NCBI GenBank assembly: GCA_016715795.1
Contig: JADJXP010000001.1
Location: 261,705-325,704, forward strand
Reading direction: 5' to 3'
DNA: 64,000 nucleotides
Origin: Chloracidobacterium sp.
GTDB taxonomy: Bacteria > Acidobacteriota > Blastocatellia > Pyrinomonadales > Pyrinomonadaceae
Shown piece after piece: positions 4,931 through 44,413 of this stretch. Under the pieces are notes generated by a model that made no database searches, had not been told where the DNA came from, and was given only the letters and a program-made list of their open reading frames with translations. Both the position numbers and the translations under genes were made by a program. Positions within the stretch are counted from its first letter, which is position 1. The number at the start of each line of letters is the position of its first letter.

Positions 4931-5007
4931 GGCTGGGTAGCTCAGCTGGTTAGAGCGCGGGATTCATAACCCCGAGGTCGGGAGTTCAAGTCTCCCCCCC
5001 GCCACCA
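4931..5007 (+). tRNA. tRNA with CAU anticodon (Met, or Ile2 if lysidine-modified)
   Basis: 77-nt cloverleaf: GGCTGGG TA GCTC AGCTGGTTA GAGC G CGGGA TTCATAA CCCCG AGGTC GGGAG TTCAAGT CTCCC CCCCGCC A CCA. There is one acceptor-stem mismatch (T4:C69). Met and Ile2 cannot be told apart by eye. Confidence 0.8.
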
Positions 5008-5444
5008 CCGTTCACTTAATCCGTAGCTTCTAGTTCTTCCTCAAGCCGTTGCCGTTCGTAGAGATCGGCGTATTCGCCGTCTGCGGCAAGCAACTCGTCG
5101 TGGGTGCCGCGTTCGATGATGCGGCCATCGGCGAGGACGCAGATCAGGTCGGCGTCCTTGATGGTCGAGACGCGATGCGAGACGATGAGCGTCGTGCGGC
5201 CCGATCGAACGTCGCGCAGATTGTGAAGGATCTTTTCCTCGGTGTAGGTGTCGACGGCGCTTAGCGAATCGTCAAGGATCAATATCCGCGGATCGCGCAT
5301 CACCGCACGAGCGATGGCCGTTCGCTGTTTCTGCCCGCCGGACAATGTAATGCCGCGCTCGCCTACGAGTTGTTCATAACCGTCGGGGAAGGTCTCGATA
5401 TCGTCCGCGAGGCCGGCGATCGCCGCGGCGAACGCGACCGTCAT

Positions 5445-5547
5445 GTCAGTGCCACCTGCGGTAGCGGGTGGTTGAGTATCCGTTTTGCTCACCATCATGT
5501 TACTTCCACTCTGCGTTAAACCACCCGCTACCGCGGGTGGTACTGAC
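5445..5547. repeat. Nested palindromic element inside the ABC nucleotide-binding-domain coding sequence
   Basis: The 29-nt arms gtcagtgccacctgcggtagcgggtggtt (5445-5473) and aaccacccgctaccgcgggtggtactgac (5519-5547) are inverted repeats with 2 mismatches. Each arm contains its own hairpin, CCACC(C/T)GC-N4-GCGGGTGG. Confidence 0.85.
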
Positions 5548-5829
5548 ACGCCGAACGCTATATTGTTCGCCAGTGTATCGCTAAACAAGAAAGTCTCCTG
5601 TGGGACAAAGCCGATCGCGCGTCTCAATTGTGCCAGCGGATATTCGCGCACGCTCCGGCCGTCGATCAATACGCTGCCATCAGGAGCGTCCATCATCCGC
5701 GGGATGAGTGACACAAGCGTCGATTTGCCGCTTCCGGTCTTGCCGACGAACGCCACGGTCCGGCCGGCCGGAATGACGAGGTCGATATCCTTTAGAACAT
5801 CTCTTGAGCCAATTGCAGTTCGGAAGGGT

Positions 5830-5875
5830 GGCTTGCCCCCGCCGCCTTGTTGTTCCGAAAGGGCGGGGGCAAGCC
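5830..5875. repeat. Perfect 14-bp-stem palindrome inside the ABC nucleotide-binding-domain coding sequence
   Basis: ggcttgcccccgcc (5830-5843) and ggcgggggcaagcc (5862-5875) are exact reverse complements separated by an 18-nt loop. Confidence 0.85.
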
Positions 5876-6964
5876 CGCCTTCCTGACCACCATTCGACGA
5901 CGCACCGTGGTTTCCATTCGCAGCATATGAAAATGTCAGATCGCGAAACTCGACCGAGCCGCTGATCGGCCGCTGTTCGATCACGCCTTCGTCGTCGCGG
6001 ATCGCCGGTACGGCCTCGAGTATCGCATTGAATCGCTTAAGCGACGCCGTTCCGCGCTGATAAAGGTTGACGACATAGCCGAGCGCGATCAGATACCAGA
6101 TCATTCGCTGCAGATAAAGGATGAACGCCGTAAAGTCGCCCGCCGTGATCTCGGCGCGAACCGCCATCGGCACACCGACGGCAACGATGATGACAAAGCC
6201 GAGTCCGATGAAGAAGAACAGCATCGGCCGCATAGCGGCGGCATATTTTACGAGCCGCAGGTTTTGCGTTGCATATTCGCGGTTCAGCACCTGAAAACGC
6301 TCGATCTCGGCATCTTCCTGAGCGTAGGCACGCACGACGCGCACGCCGGTCAGATTCTCTTGCGCACGGGCGGTGATATCGGAGAAAAATTCCTGTATCT
6401 TCTCAAAGCGGGTGTGTATCTGGCCGCCGAGATACTTGACCGTAAGCGAGACCAGCGGCGCGGGATCAGCATCAGCAGCGTGAGCTTTGTTGAGATGCTG
6501 AGCAATATCGGCAGCGAGATGCACAGGGCGAAGATCGCCTGAAAGCTGTAAAGGATCATCGGGCCGACGATCTGGCGAACGGCGGCCAGGTCATTTGTTG
6601 CCCGTGCCATCAGGTCGCCGACGCGGTTCTGGCGGAAATATTCGAGTGGTTGATCGACAAGCGCCGCGTAAAAATCCTGCCGCATGTCGAATTCGATATG
6701 CCGCGACGTGTTGATCAGCAGCCGACGCTGCAGGAACAGAAAGACGCCGCTTCCAAGATTGATCGCCAGGATCACCAGCGGATAGTAAACGACCTTGTCC
6801 CAAGTCACGCCTGCGTGCAGATCGTCCACCGCCCGCCCGACCATGTAGGGCACGAACAGCCCGAACGACATCGACGCCAGAATGCAGCCGATGCCGACAA
6901 GGACGGTACCCTTGTAGGGTTTGAAATAACGGGCAAATTTGCGTAGCTGCTCCATTAAAAGGTC

Positions 6965-7034
6965 AACCACATAGAGACATAGAACACATCGGAAATGCTT
7001 TTATGTTCTATGTGCTCTATGTTCCTATGTGGTT
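6965..7034. terminator. Word-repeat hairpin downstream of the thioesterase gene
   Basis: aaccacatagagacatagaacacat (6965-6989) pairs imperfectly with atgttctatgtgctctatgttcctatgtggtt (7003-7034). Both arms are built from degenerate ~7-nt words (ATAGAAC / ATGTTCT). Confidence 0.55.
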
Positions 7035-8861: not shown

Positions 8862-10324
8862 ACGCGGCCGAGCTGCGCGACCTCGTTGCTGAGCGGGCCG
8901 AATGGCTGCTGGTTCGCGAGACGGCGGGCACATTCCCGCTGCTAAGCGGTGAGATCGAAGTGGCCGAAGGGGACGGCAAGGCTCATTTTGGCTTTATTGA
9001 CGAGGGCGGCTTTCACTCGTGGCGGCTGAATGGTTTCGAACTCGATGGCAACGAAGTCTTGGTCGATGTTGCCGGCTCATTCAATCGCAACCGCGAAACC
9101 ATAAGGCTGATCCCACGCACGGCGGCGTCAGAGATCACAGCAGAGATCGAGATCGCGAGGCTGAAAAGGGCAAACGAGATCGCCGAACTGATCCGAACCA
9201 ATTACGCAACGGCCAATCTGCGTCGCGTCTCGCTCAATGTCGAAAACGGGCGCCTCGCTCAGATCGAACTCGACCTCGACAACACACACATGGCGGCAGT
9301 CGCCGATGTAACCGCGACACTGACGCCTGAGAGCATGCTGACTGCTGCCATTACATGGGCGGACAAGCTCTCGCTTCGTAAAAAAAGGCCGATCAACGAC
9401 CTCTGGATCATCTGCGAGAAACGCCGCTCGCGGCTCGCACAAAAACTGCATGCACTTTTGACCGAACGATGGCGGGCAAAGCTCACGATCTTCGAGATCG
9501 ATCGCCGAACCGAACCCGCACGGATAAAGGAATTACCAAAACGCCGCATTCGCGACCTTTGGCGTGAAAAGCCGCAGAAACTCATCTTGCCCGCCCGCTT
9601 CGAGCCGAGCAAGACTTCGCAAAGGATCATCAACCTCGTCCCCGACTCCATCGACATCGTTTACGCCCGTAACGGCGAGACGCTCAGGTTCAAAGGGCTG
9701 CCGTTCGCTCGTGTCCGGACGATCATGGGCGTCGAAAAAGCTTGGTTCGGCGTTGGCCGGGCGATGCGGGCCTTGAACAATGAAGACTGGGACGATCTTG
9801 TTACCTTTGTCGACGGGTTGCGTTTGATCCGCTCATTCGACAGCCCAAACAAGCGCCACGAATTATATCGCACGGCCGCCGAGGCATGGCTGGAATCGAT
9901 CCTTCGCTACAACATCAGATTGCTTGACGCAAACCTGATCCTGTCACCGATCTACAACCAATTCCGCTTCTCAAACGACAAGATCGACCTGCTCGCGATG
10001 CGTCGTGACGGCCGGCTAGTGATCATCGAGCTAAAAACACAGCCCGACCGCGAGATGGTCTTCCAATCGATCGATTACTGGCGAAAGATCGAATTGCAGC
10101 GCCGCCGCGGCATCCTTGCAGCCGCCGACCTATTTGACGGGCGCGAGATCGCCGACCGGCCGACGATCGTCTATCTGGCGGCACCTGCGTGGAGTTTTCA
10201 CCGCGATTTTGAGTATTTCGCTCGATGCGTCTCGCCCGACATCGAACTGTGGCGCTTCGACCTGCACCAGGATTGGCGAAACGATATTCGCGTCGTCGCC
10301 CGGCACAGCGTTGCCGATGGTTGA
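8855..10324 (+). CDS. Hypothetical protein with C-terminal PD-(D/E)xK (NucS/DUF91-like) nuclease motif
   Basis: The track ORF starts at 8582, but that part overlaps the SGNH gene. The likely start is the ATG at 8855, which overlaps the SGNH stop (ATGGTGA). The C-terminus has EAWLESIL...KIDLLAMRRDGRLVIIELKTQPDREMVFQSIDYW, resembling the D...ExK core and following Q..Y helix of NucS-type nucleases. Confidence 0.55.
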   Translation: MVNAAELRDLVAERAEWLLVRETAGTFPLLSGEIEVAEGDGKAHFGFIDEGGFHSWRLNGFELDGNEVLVDVAGSFNRNRETIRLIPRTAASEITAEIEIARLKRANEIAELIRTNYATANLRRVSLNVENGRLAQIELDLDNTHMAAVADVTATLTPESMLTAAITWADKLSLRKKRPINDLWIICEKRRSRLAQKLHALLTERWRAKLTIFEIDRRTEPARIKELPKRRIRDLWREKPQKLILPARFEPSKTSQRIINLVPDSIDIVYARNGETLRFKGLPFARVRTIMGVEKAWFGVGRAMRALNNEDWDDLVTFVDGLRLIRSFDSPNKRHELYRTAAEAWLESILRYNIRLLDANLILSPIYNQFRFSNDKIDLLAMRRDGRLVIIELKTQPDREMVFQSIDYWRKIELQRRRGILAAADLFDGREIADRPTIVYLAAPAWSFHRDFEYFARCVSPDIELWRFDLHQDWRNDIRVVARHSVADG

Positions 10325-17183: not shown

Positions 17184-17200
17184 CCAAATCACCAGGCAAA

Positions 17201-17301
17201 TTAGCCGCGGATTACGCGGATAAAACGGATCAGGACAAATAAGAGAAATGCCTTGCTAATATCATTTAATATCCGCGTTCATCCTTTTGATCCGCGGCTA
17301 A
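17201..17301. terminator. Word-repeat hairpin between convergent clpC and 17315..17701
   Basis: ttagccgcggat... (17201-17233) faces ...atccgcggctaa (17271-17301). The outer 12 nt are a perfect inverted repeat. The arms are made of GGAT/CGCGGAT-type words. Confidence 0.5.
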
Positions 17302-17314
17302 ATTTTTCTTCTCC

Positions 17315-18207: not shown

Positions 18208-18268
18208 CTCCAACCGCTTCCGCGTCCTGAGCCGACTGGTCGTGCTCAGGACGCGGAAGCGGTTGGAG
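18208..18268 (-). terminator. Perfect 25-bp hairpin downstream of the methyltransferase gene
   Basis: ctccaaccgcttccgcgtcctgagc (18208-18232) and gctcaggacgcggaagcggttggag (18244-18268) are exact reverse complements. Confidence 0.65.
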
Positions 18269-18286: not shown

Positions 18287-20377
18287 CTAAAGGTCTATGA
18301 TCGTCTCGTCACCCGCAATGCTGCGGACCTTTAGTCGCAGAGGTTTCTTCTTGGAGGCGATCTTGCCGTCCCAGAAGTCTTTTGTTTTTTTGCCGTCGAG
18401 GATAACGAAGCTGTTCTTATCTATCTTTATCTCTGAGTCGGACTTCCACGAGGCTTCTTTGTTGGTGCAGTCGAGCGATACCATCTCGATAAGTTCGAGG
18501 CCGTTGTCGCTGATCTCGATCTTTGTAAAACCGCCTTCTGGCTCTTCTTCGACTTCTCCGACCTCGGCAACTTCAACCAGCAGATGGCGTTTCTTTTGCA
18601 TCTGAAGCTCGCGTTTCTGGTTGTATTCGTCGATCTTTTGCATCAGGCGGTCTGAGACAAAGCTCGTGAACTCAACCTCATAGCCGTCTTTAGTCTTTCG
18701 CAGTTCATATTCCGCTATGTCGTTGAGAACAATGTTGTCGAGGACCTCTTTCAGGTCGCGAAGTTCGATCGTGATATCGAGATCATTCTGCTTTGCGATG
18801 AACTCTTCGAGGGCAGACCGGTCATCGATATCGATATAATAGACGACCACCTTTCGGACGCCGTCGGGCAGGTCGGGCATAGCTTCGACAATGATGCGGT
18901 TCATCGTCACGTTATCGAGAACCTTTGTCGAATGGTCAAGCAGGTTCGGCACATATACCGGTATCATGCCCAGCTTGCTGTCTTCGATCGCCCCTTCCCA
19001 AAAACTGTCGAGCTTGTCTTCATTACGCAAACCGTGGATAAGTTCCTTTAGCTTATCCATAGTCTGCGCCGGATTGCGGAATAACGAAACGCCGTCTTGG
19101 ATGTCAAGGACAGTGAAATCGGCGTTTCGTTCCAGTAGCCCGTCGCGCGCGGTTTGAATTGAATTTGTGCCGGTATCCACATGAATAAACGACCGACCAA
19201 GATCATCGGCGACTTTTGAAGCAACGCCGCTTCCCCCAAAAAAGTCAGCAACGACCGTCTTGCGCCCATCCTCGCGTATTTCATTGGACGATGCTTTTAC
19301 AATGCGTTCGACTAATTCCGGAGGTTTCTGTGTGGCGTAGCCGGTTCTTTCTGGATGGTTACCGCGAAGAAATGGGATATCGCTCCAAACGTCGCTCAAT
19401 GCTTGCCCGTCCTCAATTATCTCGTCGAGATAACGCTTGTACGGCTCTTGGCCAGTGGCTTGTCCGCGCGTTTCCCAAACCCATTCTTTACCATCCTCAT
19501 CTTTATGAATCTTCCGCCGGAGAGATTTGATTCGAGCGTCTCGGTCATGTTCGATCGCAACCGCCGACATATCAATCCGCTTATCGACGGCCAAGCCATA
19601 TAGGAACAATGTGTCATGTTTCGCATTAAACTTATTGGAAATGTGCATCTCTCGTCCGGGATAATGCCATACGATCTCATTCATAAAGTTATCTTCACCA
19701 AAAACCTCATCCATCAATATCTTCACATAATGTCCAATATGCCAATCTAAATGAACGTAGATACTCGCCGTTTCGCTCATTACGGAGCGGATCGCGACGA
19801 GGTTTTCGTACATCCAGTTTAGGTATTGTTCCTTATGCCAGATGTCACCATACATCTTTTCTTCAAACGCCTTTAGTTCGTCGTCCTCAAGTTCCTCGCC
19901 TGCGGCCAACGCCTCGGCAATCTTTGGGTTTTTCCGCAGGTATATCTTTTTTGCGTAATCGGCTCCGCTCGCAAACGGCGGATCGATATAAACGAGATCG
20001 ACCTTTATCCCCTGATCCTTGAGATATGCACAAGCCGAGACGCATTCGCCGCGAATGACCAGATTATCGCCGCCGCCGTTTACCTTTTCGATCTCTTCGA
20101 CTTCATACAGCGGCATCCCGCGACGGATTCGCTCCTCGACCTTATCGGCATCGCGATAGGCAAGCATGCGCCTCGTGCGGACAAAGTTATTCAGTATCGC
20201 CTGTCCGTCGATGGTATTAGGAAAATAGGGAACGTACTTTATGGGCATATTGTCATGAATTGCCTCCAGCTTTAGCTGGAGGTCAGCGGGCAGAATGGTT
20301 CGGGCTTTAGCCCAACGTTTTTGGCTAAAGCCCAGAAACTTCTTTTCAAACAATCCACGCTCTAAAGTGCGTGGCAA
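18287..20377 (-). CDS. mod: N6/N4 DNA methyltransferase, Type III Mod-like (beta-class motif order)
   Basis: Motif IV DPPF (VDLVYIDPPFASGADY) comes before motif I FxGxG (ADFFGGSGVASKV), with a long region between them that is a candidate target-recognition domain. The composition is K/N/I/E/D-rich and AT-richer than the flanks. Confidence 0.85.
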   Translation of the reverse strand: MPRTLERGLFEKKFLGFSQKRWAKARTILPADLQLKLEAIHDNMPIKYVPYFPNTIDGQAILNNFVRTRRMLAYRDADKVEERIRRGMPLYEVEEIEKVNGGGDNLVIRGECVSACAYLKDQGIKVDLVYIDPPFASGADYAKKIYLRKNPKIAEALAAGEELEDDELKAFEEKMYGDIWHKEQYLNWMYENLVAIRSVMSETASIYVHLDWHIGHYVKILMDEVFGEDNFMNEIVWHYPGREMHISNKFNAKHDTLFLYGLAVDKRIDMSAVAIEHDRDARIKSLRRKIHKDEDGKEWVWETRGQATGQEPYKRYLDEIIEDGQALSDVWSDIPFLRGNHPERTGYATQKPPELVERIVKASSNEIREDGRKTVVADFFGGSGVASKVADDLGRSFIHVDTGTNSIQTARDGLLERNADFTVLDIQDGVSLFRNPAQTMDKLKELIHGLRNEDKLDSFWEGAIEDSKLGMIPVYVPNLLDHSTKVLDNVTMNRIIVEAMPDLPDGVRKVVVYYIDIDDRSALEEFIAKQNDLDITIELRDLKEVLDNIVLNDIAEYELRKTKDGYEVEFTSFVSDRLMQKIDEYNQKRELQMQKKRHLLVEVAEVGEVEEEPEGGFTKIEISDNGLELIEMVSLDCTNKEASWKSDSEIKIDKNSFVILDGKKTKDFWDGKIASKKKPLRLKVRSIAGDETIIDL

Positions 20378-38464: not shown

Positions 38465-38496
38465 AATAGCCGGTTGTCTCTCGACAACCGGCTATT
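38465..38496. terminator. Bidirectional terminator hairpin
   Basis: AATAGCCGGTTGTC (38465-38478), loop tctc, then GACAACCGGCTATT (38483-38496). A perfect 14-bp stem between convergent genes. Confidence 0.7.
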
Positions 38497-41458: not shown

Positions 41459-43099
41459 CGCGCTCGCGTAAACCGAGGCGTCGATCTCGCTGAAGATGTT
41501 GTCTCGTGATTCGATCTCGGTAAGAAGTTCATCATCAACCTGACCTGAGTCCAGCATCTTCGCCAGCATATCGAACCGCTGAATGTGCGATTGGAATCGG
41601 CGTGACGAGTATTGCACGGTGGTGCCTTGATATATCTGGAATGCCCAGTCCGACGATTGGGCGAGCAGGAGTTCGCGGGCGGCCTGATTCAAAAGCCGAG
41701 TTCCAGATTCCAAGTCCCAGATTCCAGATTCTTTGTTCGAAATTTGAAATCTGGAATCTGAAATTTGAAATTGCTTCGCGAGTTCGGTCATTCGCCGTTC
41801 CGCGTCGTGCTGATACGGGTACATCCACGAATTTCCTTCGTTTATCCAAACTTTGTAATAGCCGCTCTCGCCCCAGCTTGAGGCGGTCGGGCGTTGTTCC
41901 TGGATCGATAGGCCGGCGTCGAGAAAATCGCCGGGCGTGACGCACGCGATCTCGTCCTGGTCGAAGTGCATCTTCTTGAAGAAGAAGTCGAGAAACTGTG
42001 GCCCCTCATACCACCAATGGCCGTAAAGCTCTGCATCATAGGGGCTTATGACTAGCGGCGGATGGCCTTCAAACGTCTCACGTAGCTGGTGTGCCTGCTT
42101 GATGCGCTCATTGATAAAGTTCGATGCGTTTTCAGCCGCCTTGTCGCGCGCAAGCGCGGGAATGTACGGCTCCTTGCGGTTTTGCGGCACGTCGCGGCCT
42201 GTGATGCGGTGGTATTTCAGGCCGAGGTGGCGGCGTTCGCCGGACGAGTGCAGGTGCGGTTTGACGTATTCGTAATCCGCGTCCCAGCCGATGTCACGGT
42301 AGAACTCGCGATACAGGGCGTTGCCCGGATAGCCGATCTCGGCCGACCAGACCTGCTGGCTCGTCTCGACGTCGCGGGCAAATACGGCGACGCCGTTCGG
42401 AGTGACAACCGGAGCGTGAACGCCATAACGCGGCCTCGGATCGCCGTAAAGGATCGCGTGCGTGTCGGAGATGAAGTATTCGATGCCGGCATCTTTTAAC
42501 AGGTCCTCGACGCCCGGCTCGTACGCACACTCGGCGAGCCAGATGCCGCGGGGCTGGCGGCCGAAGTGCTTTTTGTAATTCGTGACCGCGATCTCGACCT
42601 GCGCACGCCGCGATTCGCGGGTCGAGATGAGCGGCAAAAAGCCGTGCGTCGCGCAGCAGGTGATGACCTCGACGACGCCCTCGTCCTGCAGTTCGCGGAA
42701 TGCGTTGACGAGATTGCGTTTGTAGCGGTTGTTCCACAGCTCGAGCGAGGCGGTCAGGTTATCGACGTACATCTTTGCGACGTCGTGAAAGTTGGCGGCC
42801 TCGTTTCGCGTGCGGTGTTCCTCTTTGTGGGCGAGATCGATGAGGTTTTCGAGGTGGCGTGTGTAACGTTCCTGCAGCAGCGGGTCGGCGAGCATTTCAC
42901 ACAGCGGCGGCGAGACGTTCATGGCAAGCCGCGGCGACGCACCGGCCTCGTGCAGCGATTGAAAAATGAAAATTAGCGGAAGATAGACCTCGGTTATCGC
43001 CTCGTAGAGCCAGTCTTCCTCAAGGAATTCGGGATATTCGGGATGCCGGACAAACGGCAGATGGGCGTGGAGGATGAGGCTGAAATAACCGAGCGGCAT
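41453..43099 (-). CDS. GH57-family glycoside hydrolase (1,4-alpha-glucan branching enzyme type, with DUF1957-like C-terminus)
   Basis: The N-terminus [35 protein letters not shown] is characteristic of GH57 branching enzymes. Confidence 0.85.
41696..41775. repeat. Heptad-word palindrome inside the GH57 coding sequence
   Basis: cagattccagatt (41718-41730) is the exact reverse complement of aatctggaatctg (41748-41760). The arms are tandem 7-mers, (CCAGATT)n and (TGAAATY)n. Translated, the element gives ...[25 protein letters not shown]... Confidence 0.85.
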
Positions 43100-43115
43100 T
43101 GCAGGTATATTAAAA

Positions 43116-43175
43116 CAGGATGGCGAGGATAGACAGGATAAACTATTAAATCCTGTCTATCCTGTCTAATCTGTT
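43116..43175. terminator. Word-repeat hairpin downstream of the DUF4912 gene
   Basis: acaggatggcgaggatagacaggat (43116-43140) faces atcctgtctatcctgtctaatctgt (43151-43175). The inner 13 nt pair perfectly. The arms are tandem 9-nt words (AGGATAGAC / ATCCTGTCT). Confidence 0.55.
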
Positions 43176-43183
43176 TGAAGAAA

Positions 43184-44413
43184 CTAGCCGACCGAGTGTG
43201 AACTGACCGGATTATATCGTGCCGACGTTACTCGTCGCGTTTTCAGCGTTTTGGGGAAATGCACGAGGCTCACGCCGTAGACCGCGGCTGAGAATTCCTC
43301 CTCGGTCCATTCGGCCTCGTCGATGTCGAAATGTTCCTTAAGTGCGACCTGCGCTTTGGCAGCTGTCAGCTTACCAACATTTGCCTGTAGAATCGCGAAT
43401 AACGCAGGGCCGACGCGCCATCGAATCTCCTCCAGCGTAAAGCCGCTTGCGAGGGCAAGCATCGCGTAGCGAATGTCATCGGCGGCGATGCCGTCGAGGG
43501 CATATTCACTCGTGCCGATGAATTTTGAGAACGCGATCTGCGAAGCGTTATCGGCCGTGATCGGATCGTCACCTGCCATAGCAACATCAAAGGCGTCGCG
43601 CGAAAATCCCGACACATCAAGCACCTCGGCAAATTTCGTGGCCGAAACTGTCCACCGCGAATCTGTAGAAGGCCGCGGACTTGGGCTGCGGCGCGGCGTC
43701 GCGATCGAGTTGGAGTACATGACTCTAAAATAAGGTCGATTCACCGCATAGAACCCGATCTCGGCCCGGTATTCGCCATCAGGCTCGACTGCGAACCACC
43801 AGTTACCCGTGCTGTCACAAGGGTTGATCTCTTCAGTCTCGCGCTTGAGGTCAACCAGTTTTACAACCAGGGCGTAACTGCCGAGATCATCACCGAATAT
43901 TCGTTTCAGCTGATGCCATGGGTTGTCCTTCAGCGACCAATAAAAATAGAGCCGCGTTGGCGACTGCATTAGCAGCCGTGCACGATTCTCGCGATCAAGT
44001 TCAGGAAGGGAAACGTCTGAAAGGGCCTTAAACGCCGGTGAAAGTTCAACTTCCGGTTCCACCGAAACAAGCTCGGATGTGAGTTCGAGATCAGCCTTTG
44101 CTCGCTTCGCCGCTTTCTTCCGGACCGGTTTTGTACTGGCCATCTTAGGGCCATCCGCAGTCGATTGGCCCGTCCCTTCCGCCTTTTTCCTCCTCGACGC
44201 TTTTTTTACCTGCGATGTCGCAACGGCAACCTCTGCGAAGGCGTCTGCCGAAGGCTCAGTCGTCTTCTTCGAGGAGCGAGTGTTCCGCTTCCTAACGACT
44301 TTCGGCGGCATCGCTGATCCGACAACACGTGGATCGACAACGTCTGCGAACGGATCGGTTACGGTCGTTCTCTGCTTAGGTACCTTCCTTTTTGTAACTC
44401 CCTCTTTTGCCAC
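43184..44413 (-). CDS. DUF4912-like protein with basic, disordered N-terminus
   Basis: Core sequence LLMQSPTRLYFYWSLKDNPWHQLKRIFGDD...WWFAVEPDGEYRAEIGFY resembles DUF4912. It lies immediately upstream of the GH57 gene on the same strand. Confidence 0.55.
   Translation of the reverse strand: MAKEGVTKRKVPKQRTTVTDPFADVVDPRVVGSAMPPKVVRKRNTRSSKKTTEPSADAFAEVAVATSQVKKASRRKKAEGTGQSTADGPKMASTKPVRKKAAKRAKADLELTSELVSVEPEVELSPAFKALSDVSLPELDRENRARLLMQSPTRLYFYWSLKDNPWHQLKRIFGDDLGSYALVVKLVDLKRETEEINPCDSTGNWWFAVEPDGEYRAEIGFYAVNRPYFRVMYSNSIATPRRSPSPRPSTDSRWTVSATKFAEVLDVSGFSRDAFDVAMAGDDPITADNASQIAFSKFIGTSEYALDGIAADDIRYAMLALASGFTLEEIRWRVGPALFAILQANVGKLTAAKAQVALKEHFDIDEAEWTEEEFSAAVYGVSLVHFPKTLKTRRVTSARYNPVSSHSVG

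Follow-up and report, generated by a model that had tools for sequence, protein, structure and literature searches.

A perfect DNA palindrome lies within the nucleotide-binding domain of an ABC transporter gene, and the question that this locus raises is how such a sequence came to stand in a conserved ATPase and whether the gene that carries it still works. The analysis covered the 64,000-nucleotide stretch as a whole (hereafter the window) together with orthologous loci, related genomes and public sequencing runs. The two arms, GGCTTGCCCCCGCC and GGCGGGGGCAAGCC, are exact reverse complements of each other, and the stem, the loop length and the minus-strand translation of the surrounding stretch were all recovered as the original prediction had described them (Table 1). 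Beyond the perfect stem, imperfect pairing reaches 33-nt arms (5811-5843 and 5862-5894, 79% complementary); the whole element is ordered as unit, loop and inverted unit.

Table 1. Features of the ABC transporter gene and its palindromic inserts; positions are those of the window.
Feature	Position	Strand	Description	Basis
ABCB-type half-transporter gene (ABC_membrane and ABC_tran)	5016-6955	-		Pfam, orthologues, neighbourhood, corrected translation
Apparent frameshift site	6459-6460		one A (+ strand) missing from the window assembly	eight runs
Everything between A-loop FSY and VLKDIDL	5799-5924	-	126 nt, 42 codons; in uninserted orthologues 12 nt, 4 codons
Perfect 14-bp stem with 18-nt loop	5830-5843 / 5862-5875, loop 5844-5861			sequence, inverted-repeat search
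Whole hairpin element	5810-5895		~86-nt imperfect palindrome; two inverted copies of the ~32-nt type A unit and decayed outer arms	inverted repeats, unit HMM, fold
Second in-frame palindromic insert, type B (PPAVAGG...PPATAGG)	5434-5558		40-nt arms, 85% complementary; separate repeat family

When the window was simulated 200 times under an order-1 Markov model, hairpins with perfect stems of 14 bp or longer and loops of 3 to 50 nt were expected by chance at 0.025 per 64 kb and appeared in 3 of the 200 simulations, versus five observed in the window, two of them within the ABC gene. Folding of positions 5806-5899 gave -59.8 kcal/mol for the sense-strand RNA (z = -6.6) and -26.7 kcal/mol for the DNA (z = -4.1). 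Logan contigs from four independent activated-sludge or wastewater runs span 5790-5915 without a substitution, an indel or a joint, and this identity of the hairpin across runs disposes of the assembly artefact that had been entertained for this region. When the runs were compared with the element by itself at 85% likeness, each gave just the host contig, a comparison that does not count diverged copies. Given the simulations, the folds and the independently assembled run contigs, the palindrome is real, non-random and no product of assembly. One further run (X26) holds a strain variant with C>T both at 5843, the innermost base of the left arm, and at 5846 in the adjoining loop; the change at 5843 gives the family-consensus ...CGCT. 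The hairpin was also considered as an intrinsic terminator, a reading that was dropped because no T-run follows it. A search of Rfam at the gathering score matched no family to the elements in 15 loci, and in the window it returned just sub-threshold microRNA-precursor look-alikes, that is, generic hairpins. As for transcription through the hairpin, the contig from the lone cDNA-labelled run spans just 5114-5369, off the element.

The host gene encodes an N-terminal ABC_membrane domain (PF00664) followed by an ABC_tran domain (PF00005) with Walker A, Q-loop, LSGGQ, Walker B and H-loop, which places the protein among the ABCB-type (type IV fold) exporters. The catalytic motifs, SHR included, are invariant across an alignment of 69 orthologues, and the top PDB matches are ABCB4, ABCB1, MsbA and TmrAB-like proteins, with E values down to 1e-101. 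The closest relatives are ABC exporters annotated as Pyrinomonadaceae, Blastocatellia or Chloracidobacterium (Acidobacteriota) with 72-88% identity. The gene neighborhood is conserved in relatives, with a GDSL lipase, an unnamed ORF and a 4HBT thioesterase upstream, and in the closest of them a Na+/H+ exchanger lies downstream of the ABC gene. A tRNA gene at 4931-5004 (+ strand; RF00005, 62 bits) lies 12 nt from the ABC stop codon in convergent orientation.

The insert stands in frame directly after the tyrosine of FSY (codon 5925-5927), and the valine codon of VLKDIDL follows it at 5796-5798; these codon positions bear out the proposed placement of the palindrome between the two motifs. We take the tyrosine of this F-x-Y motif to be the A-loop aromatic, which stacks against the adenine ring, and the turn that follows presumably joins the first two β strands of the nucleotide-binding domain (β1-β2). 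In 73 of 119 orthologues just four residues (NGK/H-P/A) separate F-x-Y from VL, relative to which the window adds about 38 residues. Solved ABCB structures have one to two residues where the window carries 36 extra, and phmmer alignments to the ABCB4 and plant ABCB1 structures break off after query residue 48 and pick up again at 85, a gap over which the PDB chain moves on by just two residues. The insertion that the original prediction had expected a homologue alignment to reveal is thus present: at the level of sequence comparison, these alignments show the copy in the ABC gene to be inserted sequence that most orthologues and the solved structures lack. An AlphaFold2 model of the domain, built on 69 sequences, has a mean pLDDT of 72.7; blocks of ten residues mostly score 72-97, with exceptions in the N-terminal ~20 residues and in block 231-240, and pLDDT drops under 50, with almost no secondary structure, in residues 46-81, which make up the FSY insert, and in 155-195, the surroundings of the second insert. 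The pN/pS of the insert is 0.44-0.80 vs 0.10-0.19 in the rest of the gene, and the insert is relaxed at the protein level.

The palindrome has many relatives outside this gene. Alignment of 162 copies gave a type A unit with a consensus of ~32 nt, cAGGTcaGGAAGGnnGGCTTGCCCCCGCTCTT, and its arm motif, GGAAGGNNGGCTTGCCCCCGC (a 19-base pattern), served as the query for a scan of GTDB in which each species was represented by one genome. At least 120 stretches matched, and 117 of the matches listed belong to Pyrinomonadaceae, Blastocatellia, Chloracidobacterium or unclassified Acidobacteriota, with several genomes contributing four to five stretches each among the matches listed. This dispersal shows that the palindrome, as read from its sequence, is a copy of a dispersed, lineage-restricted repeat and is not peculiar to the ABC gene, a point that the original prediction had missed. 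The sole match from another phylum among those listed, L097, is labelled uncultured Clostridia and may reflect chance, mis-binning of the contig or horizontal transfer; L015 and L094 are labelled just "bacterium". Within the window itself, an HMM of the unit built from 169 dispersed copies matched 5812-5848 (+ strand, E = 2.6e-7) and 5857-5893 (- strand, E = 2.5e-9) and nowhere else, and in run X1 just one other contig, of similar depth, carries a unit; for these reasons the type A family seems sparse in the window's own genome. At the peptide level, a search with a 51-residue composite query produced 23 word candidates and none with E <= 10, and a HMMER scan of the 36-residue window peptide against 1.84 billion representatives gave 0 matches, short low-complexity queries evidently being below the reach of such a scan. 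Full-text literature searches returned no paper linking Blastocatellia or Pyrinomonadaceae to such repeats and, within the literature searched, the type A family appears to be undescribed.

Among the matches listed, 124 elements were delimited, with 76 singlets, 16 "+-" hairpins and 31 "-+" pairs. The arms of the "+-" hairpins are spaced 31-128 nt apart (40 in the window copy, the same as in L047), and the "-+" pairs, in which an inverted unit, a center and a unit follow one another, are spaced ~110-116 nt apart, are ~135 nt long and share a conserved center around TTGAAAGCCTTTCAA. Most of these 124 copies are intergenic or overlap the ends of genes, and none of them lies clearly inside another gene. 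An aldehyde dehydrogenase-like ORF of L025 has a "-+" element on either side, and a 6-phosphogluconate dehydrogenase-like ORF of L069 is flanked by a "-+" element and a singlet; the two ORFs were identified from their translations. A single unit is not self-complementary, the consensus units folding no better than shuffles (z = +1.36 and -0.32), and the complementarity lies between units and extends, within each pair, to positions at which the copies vary: 17 hairpin-type copies showed 62 both-side changes vs 23.5 +/- 3.8 in shuffled sets (0 of 500 shuffles reached 62), with slid controls at no more than 24. In the "+-" copies 91.8% of the cells are paired, 12 pairs are changed on both sides and covariation is 0.257 vs 0.087 when shuffled. 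Such both-side complementarity fits elements that depend on a hairpin; inverted duplication would give the same signal.

The FSY turn of this gene has received other sequences as well. In total, 46 of the 119 orthologues carry inserts there, and these derive from at least four unrelated palindromic families: type A (EGGLAPAL...GGKPPFRT) in the window and in P0001, P0002, P0004 and P0081; type B, the family of the second insert, in 9 orthologues; type C (SPPYEGG...DGVVLS) in 7 orthologues and in one composite with type D; and type D (ATESTE...SVSSVA) in 18 orthologues and in the same C/D composite, with inserts in a further 7 orthologues left unclassified. One DNA example each of types B, C and D at the FSY turn was examined and every one is a hairpin, the type B example (L127) folding at -86.7 kcal/mol over 159 nt. 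Orthologues ~80% identical to the window show three states at the turn, namely type A, type D or no insert. The type A inserts are co-linear and 126 nt long in the window, L001/L002 and L004, and the insert of L005 is 165 nt long with different flanks; because of this difference in length and flanks, at least two gains of type A at the turn, or one gain and a rearrangement, are likely from the sequences compared. In L126 (11051-11179, P0070) a type D and a type C element are adjacent in the same FSY turn, and the second loop of some orthologues combines two or three families; from these composites it follows that the repeats accumulate in clusters, as in BIMEs. The second loop (5445-5547) is extended in all 119 orthologues, and the extensions measure 17-60 residues; type B accounts for at least 67 orthologues and several other peptide types for the rest; palindromic peptide types seen there include PQRR...SASPRL, KIENG...LNSQF, SKGV...TPPLPHSS and INADD...RKSAA. 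The arms of the second insert are multi-copy in the same metagenomes, in extra contigs at 3-6x depth. Since inserts of at least four unrelated palindromic families occur at the FSY turn in 46 of 119 orthologues, its interpretation as a tolerated hotspot is supported.

Two alternatives would remove either the repeat or the working gene from this account. According to one, the palindrome arose by chance or locally, through replication slippage or fold-back synthesis in a low-complexity linker, or is an assembly artefact, with no repeat family behind it. The sequence is indeed GC-rich and of low complexity, and the 14-mer GGCTTGCCCCCGCC has no other occurrence within the window; on the other side stand the simulated expectation given above, a 21-32-nt unit that at least 120 further stretches in related genomes share and a hairpin that is identical in four runs. 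The dispersed copies and the run contigs refute this origin, and the probability that we leave to it is close to nil. The other alternative takes two palindromic inserts and a frameshift as the marks of a pseudogene, and in the window sequence as given the ABC gene is split into two ORFs (6350-6970 and 5016-6524). However, the host-genome contig has an extra A after 6459 in eight of eight independent public runs, accounting for 100% of the depth in seven of them and for 12.9 of 16 in X2, where the remaining depth belongs to an unrelated short contig ending at 6459. With the A restored, the gene has an open frame of 651 codons (646 residues counted from the ATG of the orthologues) that reads ...LMLIPLPLVSL... 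and matches P0001, which is 88% identical. Moreover, pN/pS outside both inserts is 0.10-0.19 against four orthologues, and both inserts are multiples of 3 nt and stop-free in every orthologue examined. Because the extra A in the runs restores the frame, pN/pS is low and the catalytic motifs are invariant, the ABC gene is intact and, outside its inserts, constrained by strong purifying selection, and the frameshift is an error or a private variant of the window assembly. There is no homopolymer at 6459-6460, and further single-base errors may exist elsewhere in the window. The original prediction had offered a tolerated hotspot or a decaying gene; the hotspot has gained support from the inserts in other orthologues, whereas decay is refuted for the population by the frame restored in eight runs and a pN/pS of 0.10, and is in our judgment highly improbable. 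A false pseudogene call is thereby removed, and the odd low-complexity stretch in a conserved ATPase is accounted for.

The arms have changed less than expected. We set the two 22-nt arm cores of orthologous copies against the gene's own four-fold degenerate sites. For the window and L001, 8 of 44 arm-core positions differ vs 117 of 283 four-fold sites (p = 0.004); between the window and L004, 7 of 44 vs 141 of 273 (p = 7e-6); and between L001 and L004, 3 of 44 vs 135 of 267 (p = 7e-9). The window and L005 differ at 4 of 44 arm positions though their proteins are 74% identical, and the rest of the insert, outside the arm cores, differs at 0.35-0.65. Since the arm cores diverge 2-7 times less than four-fold sites, a neutral passenger would be an incomplete description of the element. 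In each arm the family consensus is preserved while the stems carry two to three mismatches, and for this reason we favor homogenization by other copies or a sequence-specific constraint over pure structural selection. These data also bear on the idea that the element has been exapted, the DNA or mRNA hairpin or the encoded loop having gained a function for which it is kept by selection, such as slowed translation, mRNA stabilization, protein binding or a regulatory disordered loop beside the ATP site. The conservation of the arm cores beyond the neutral level would suit this idea, as would the low synonymous divergence of the second insert (pS 0.137 vs 0.451, window vs L001), the very stable RNA structure and the position of the insert directly after the A-loop tyrosine. 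However, 61% of the orthologues have no insert at the FSY turn and others hold unrelated sequences there; the consensus sequence of the arms is conserved and not just their pairing, which homogenization by other copies fits at least as well; the peptide is modeled at low confidence without secondary structure and has a pN/pS of 0.44-0.80; and the hairpin has no T-run behind it that would make it a terminator and matches no Rfam family. We consider exaptation quite improbable. Less improbable, but still unlikely, is a stronger form of the hotspot, namely that both loops of the nucleotide-binding domain are true target hotspots and not just permissive places, to whose few codons many unrelated families would home and where the arms would be kept near consensus by continuing conversion or selection. 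Such homing could arise if a palindrome already in place were extruded as a hairpin and served as the landing pad for the next. If this were true, the gene would be a natural record of selfish hairpin DNA building and renewing protein segments in free-living bacteria.

Very probably, the palindrome in the ABC gene represents an in-frame copy of a hairpin repeat. The repeat would be non-autonomous, is made of two inverted ~32-nt units and belongs to a family dispersed in Pyrinomonadaceae and Blastocatellia. On this account a hairpin-forming repeat would have arrived by transposition or recombination and landed in the codons of the β1-β2 turn, directly after the A-loop tyrosine. It would have survived because its frame stayed open and the turn is probably solvent-exposed, a Gly/Pro/Gln-rich and probably disordered loop being tolerable there without disturbing ATP binding or dimerization. 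Such permissiveness, possibly together with palindromes attracting palindromes, may have made the FSY turn and the second loop (5445-5547) recurrent landing sites. The peptide encoded by the insert is probably no functional module but a passenger. With type A, type D or no insert at the first site and a second loop that is always extended, the ABC gene offers a convenient system for the study of site choice, survival and gain of function.

We looked for an enzyme that might move the unit. No Y1 transposase gene lies beside any of the 124 copies among the matches listed, and no recurrent protein family emerged among 673 clustered ORFs within 1.5 kb of the units. Two Y1_Tnp (IS200/RAYT-like) genes are present in L003, the orthologous locus of a relative, at 1400-2340 and 9300-10010, one of them directly upstream of the ABC gene. 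The first lies amid arrays of GTCCC(N4-5)GGGAC and CGTCGGGTTTCACCCGACG hairpins, the latter beginning with CGTC, and the second is flanked by GGAGCG...GCGAGCA-type hairpins; both loci look like REPtron or TIRtron arrangements, without the type A unit. When the two Y1_Tnp proteins were searched against all loci by tblastn, no enzyme associated with the type A unit was found. No target-site duplication is visible at the type A copies, the flanks being inverted (AAGA...TCTT) and not direct.

The window holds further hairpins outside the ABC gene. A perfect hairpin with 25-bp arms (CTCCAACCGCTTCCGCGTCCTGAGC and its reverse complement) and an 11-nt loop occupies 18208-18268, intergenic and 19 nt beyond the stop of a 696-residue ORF (18287-20377, minus strand) whose DPPF motif suggests a putative DNA methyltransferase; this hairpin may represent another repeat family or a terminator. 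Others lie at 17198-17304, 38465-38496, 41707-41771 and 43105-43184, and perfect 14-bp stems occur among them at 38465-38496 and 43126-43163.

Several known repeat systems resemble the type A family in part. The MITEs with in-frame intragenic copies (ERIC/RU, Correia and Nezha; PMC2759123, PMC10969869) share with it a length of ~80-170 bp and terminal inverted repeats; they too code for nothing themselves and are occasionally read through and translated within a host protein. The "-+" copies have the form of such elements, being ~135 nt long with ~32-nt inverted ends and a conserved center; in contrast to MITEs, neither a target-site duplication nor a parent IS sharing the ends was found for the type A copies listed, so that only half of the MITE description applies.

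The REP, BIME and REPIN sequences and the TIR repeats linked to tyrosine transposases (RAYT and TIRYT; PMC3116915, PMC3337134, PMC3733652) are likewise built from a short unit, which is found alone or in head-to-head and tail-to-tail dimers, mostly at gene ends. Two paired units make up a long hairpin, and their complementarity persists even where copies vary. The organization of type A is REP/BIME-like in that singlets and both types of dimer occur, up to five stretches per genome among the matches listed and mostly at gene ends. The window element also has the architecture of a REPIN, with two inverted units, a short spacer and conserved pairing (PMC3116915), a signal that inverted duplication would give as well. 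In contrast, the type A consensus has neither the GTAG nor the CGTC tag, and the REP unit (20-40 nt) is itself a stem-loop (PMC3733652), which the type A unit is not, so it does not belong to the classical REPs. As to the cognate RAYT of a REPIN, scanning of the surroundings of the 124 listed copies found no Y1 gene beside them, those of L003 being flanked by unrelated hairpins; likewise, no RAYT or TIRYT gene flanked by the type A unit was found near the copies. Intragenic REPs have been reported in several species (PMC10969869, PMC3733652), and Acidobacteria carry TIRYT genes with associated TIR repeat families (PMC3733652).

The closest functional analogy is with the Rickettsia palindromic elements (RPEs; Ogata et al. 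2000, 2002), which PMC10969869 and PMC3733652 describe as dispersed palindromic repeats lying in frame in functional Rickettsia genes. In both cases dispersed palindromes of ~100-150 bp lie in frame in functional housekeeping genes, the added peptide is judged compatible with the fold, several families coexist and some genes have been struck twice. The sequences are probably unrelated, to judge from the near restriction of the type A unit to Acidobacteriota among the matches listed; some RPEs end in CGTC (PMC3733652), which the type A unit does not. The hosts differ too, obligate intracellular Alphaproteobacteria in one case and free-living Acidobacteriota in the other, and here most sampled copies are intergenic and intragenic ones exceptional. 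The ABC-gene copy, a dispersed palindrome in frame in a functional gene at a permissive place, is RPE-like in the sense of functional analogy only. With it, the Pyrinomonadaceae, free-living and abundant bacteria of soil and activated sludge, join the few cases of dispersed palindromic DNA translated in housekeeping proteins, and annotation pipelines may have to reckon with Gly/Pro-rich "linkers" in Acidobacteriota proteins that may be translated repeats.
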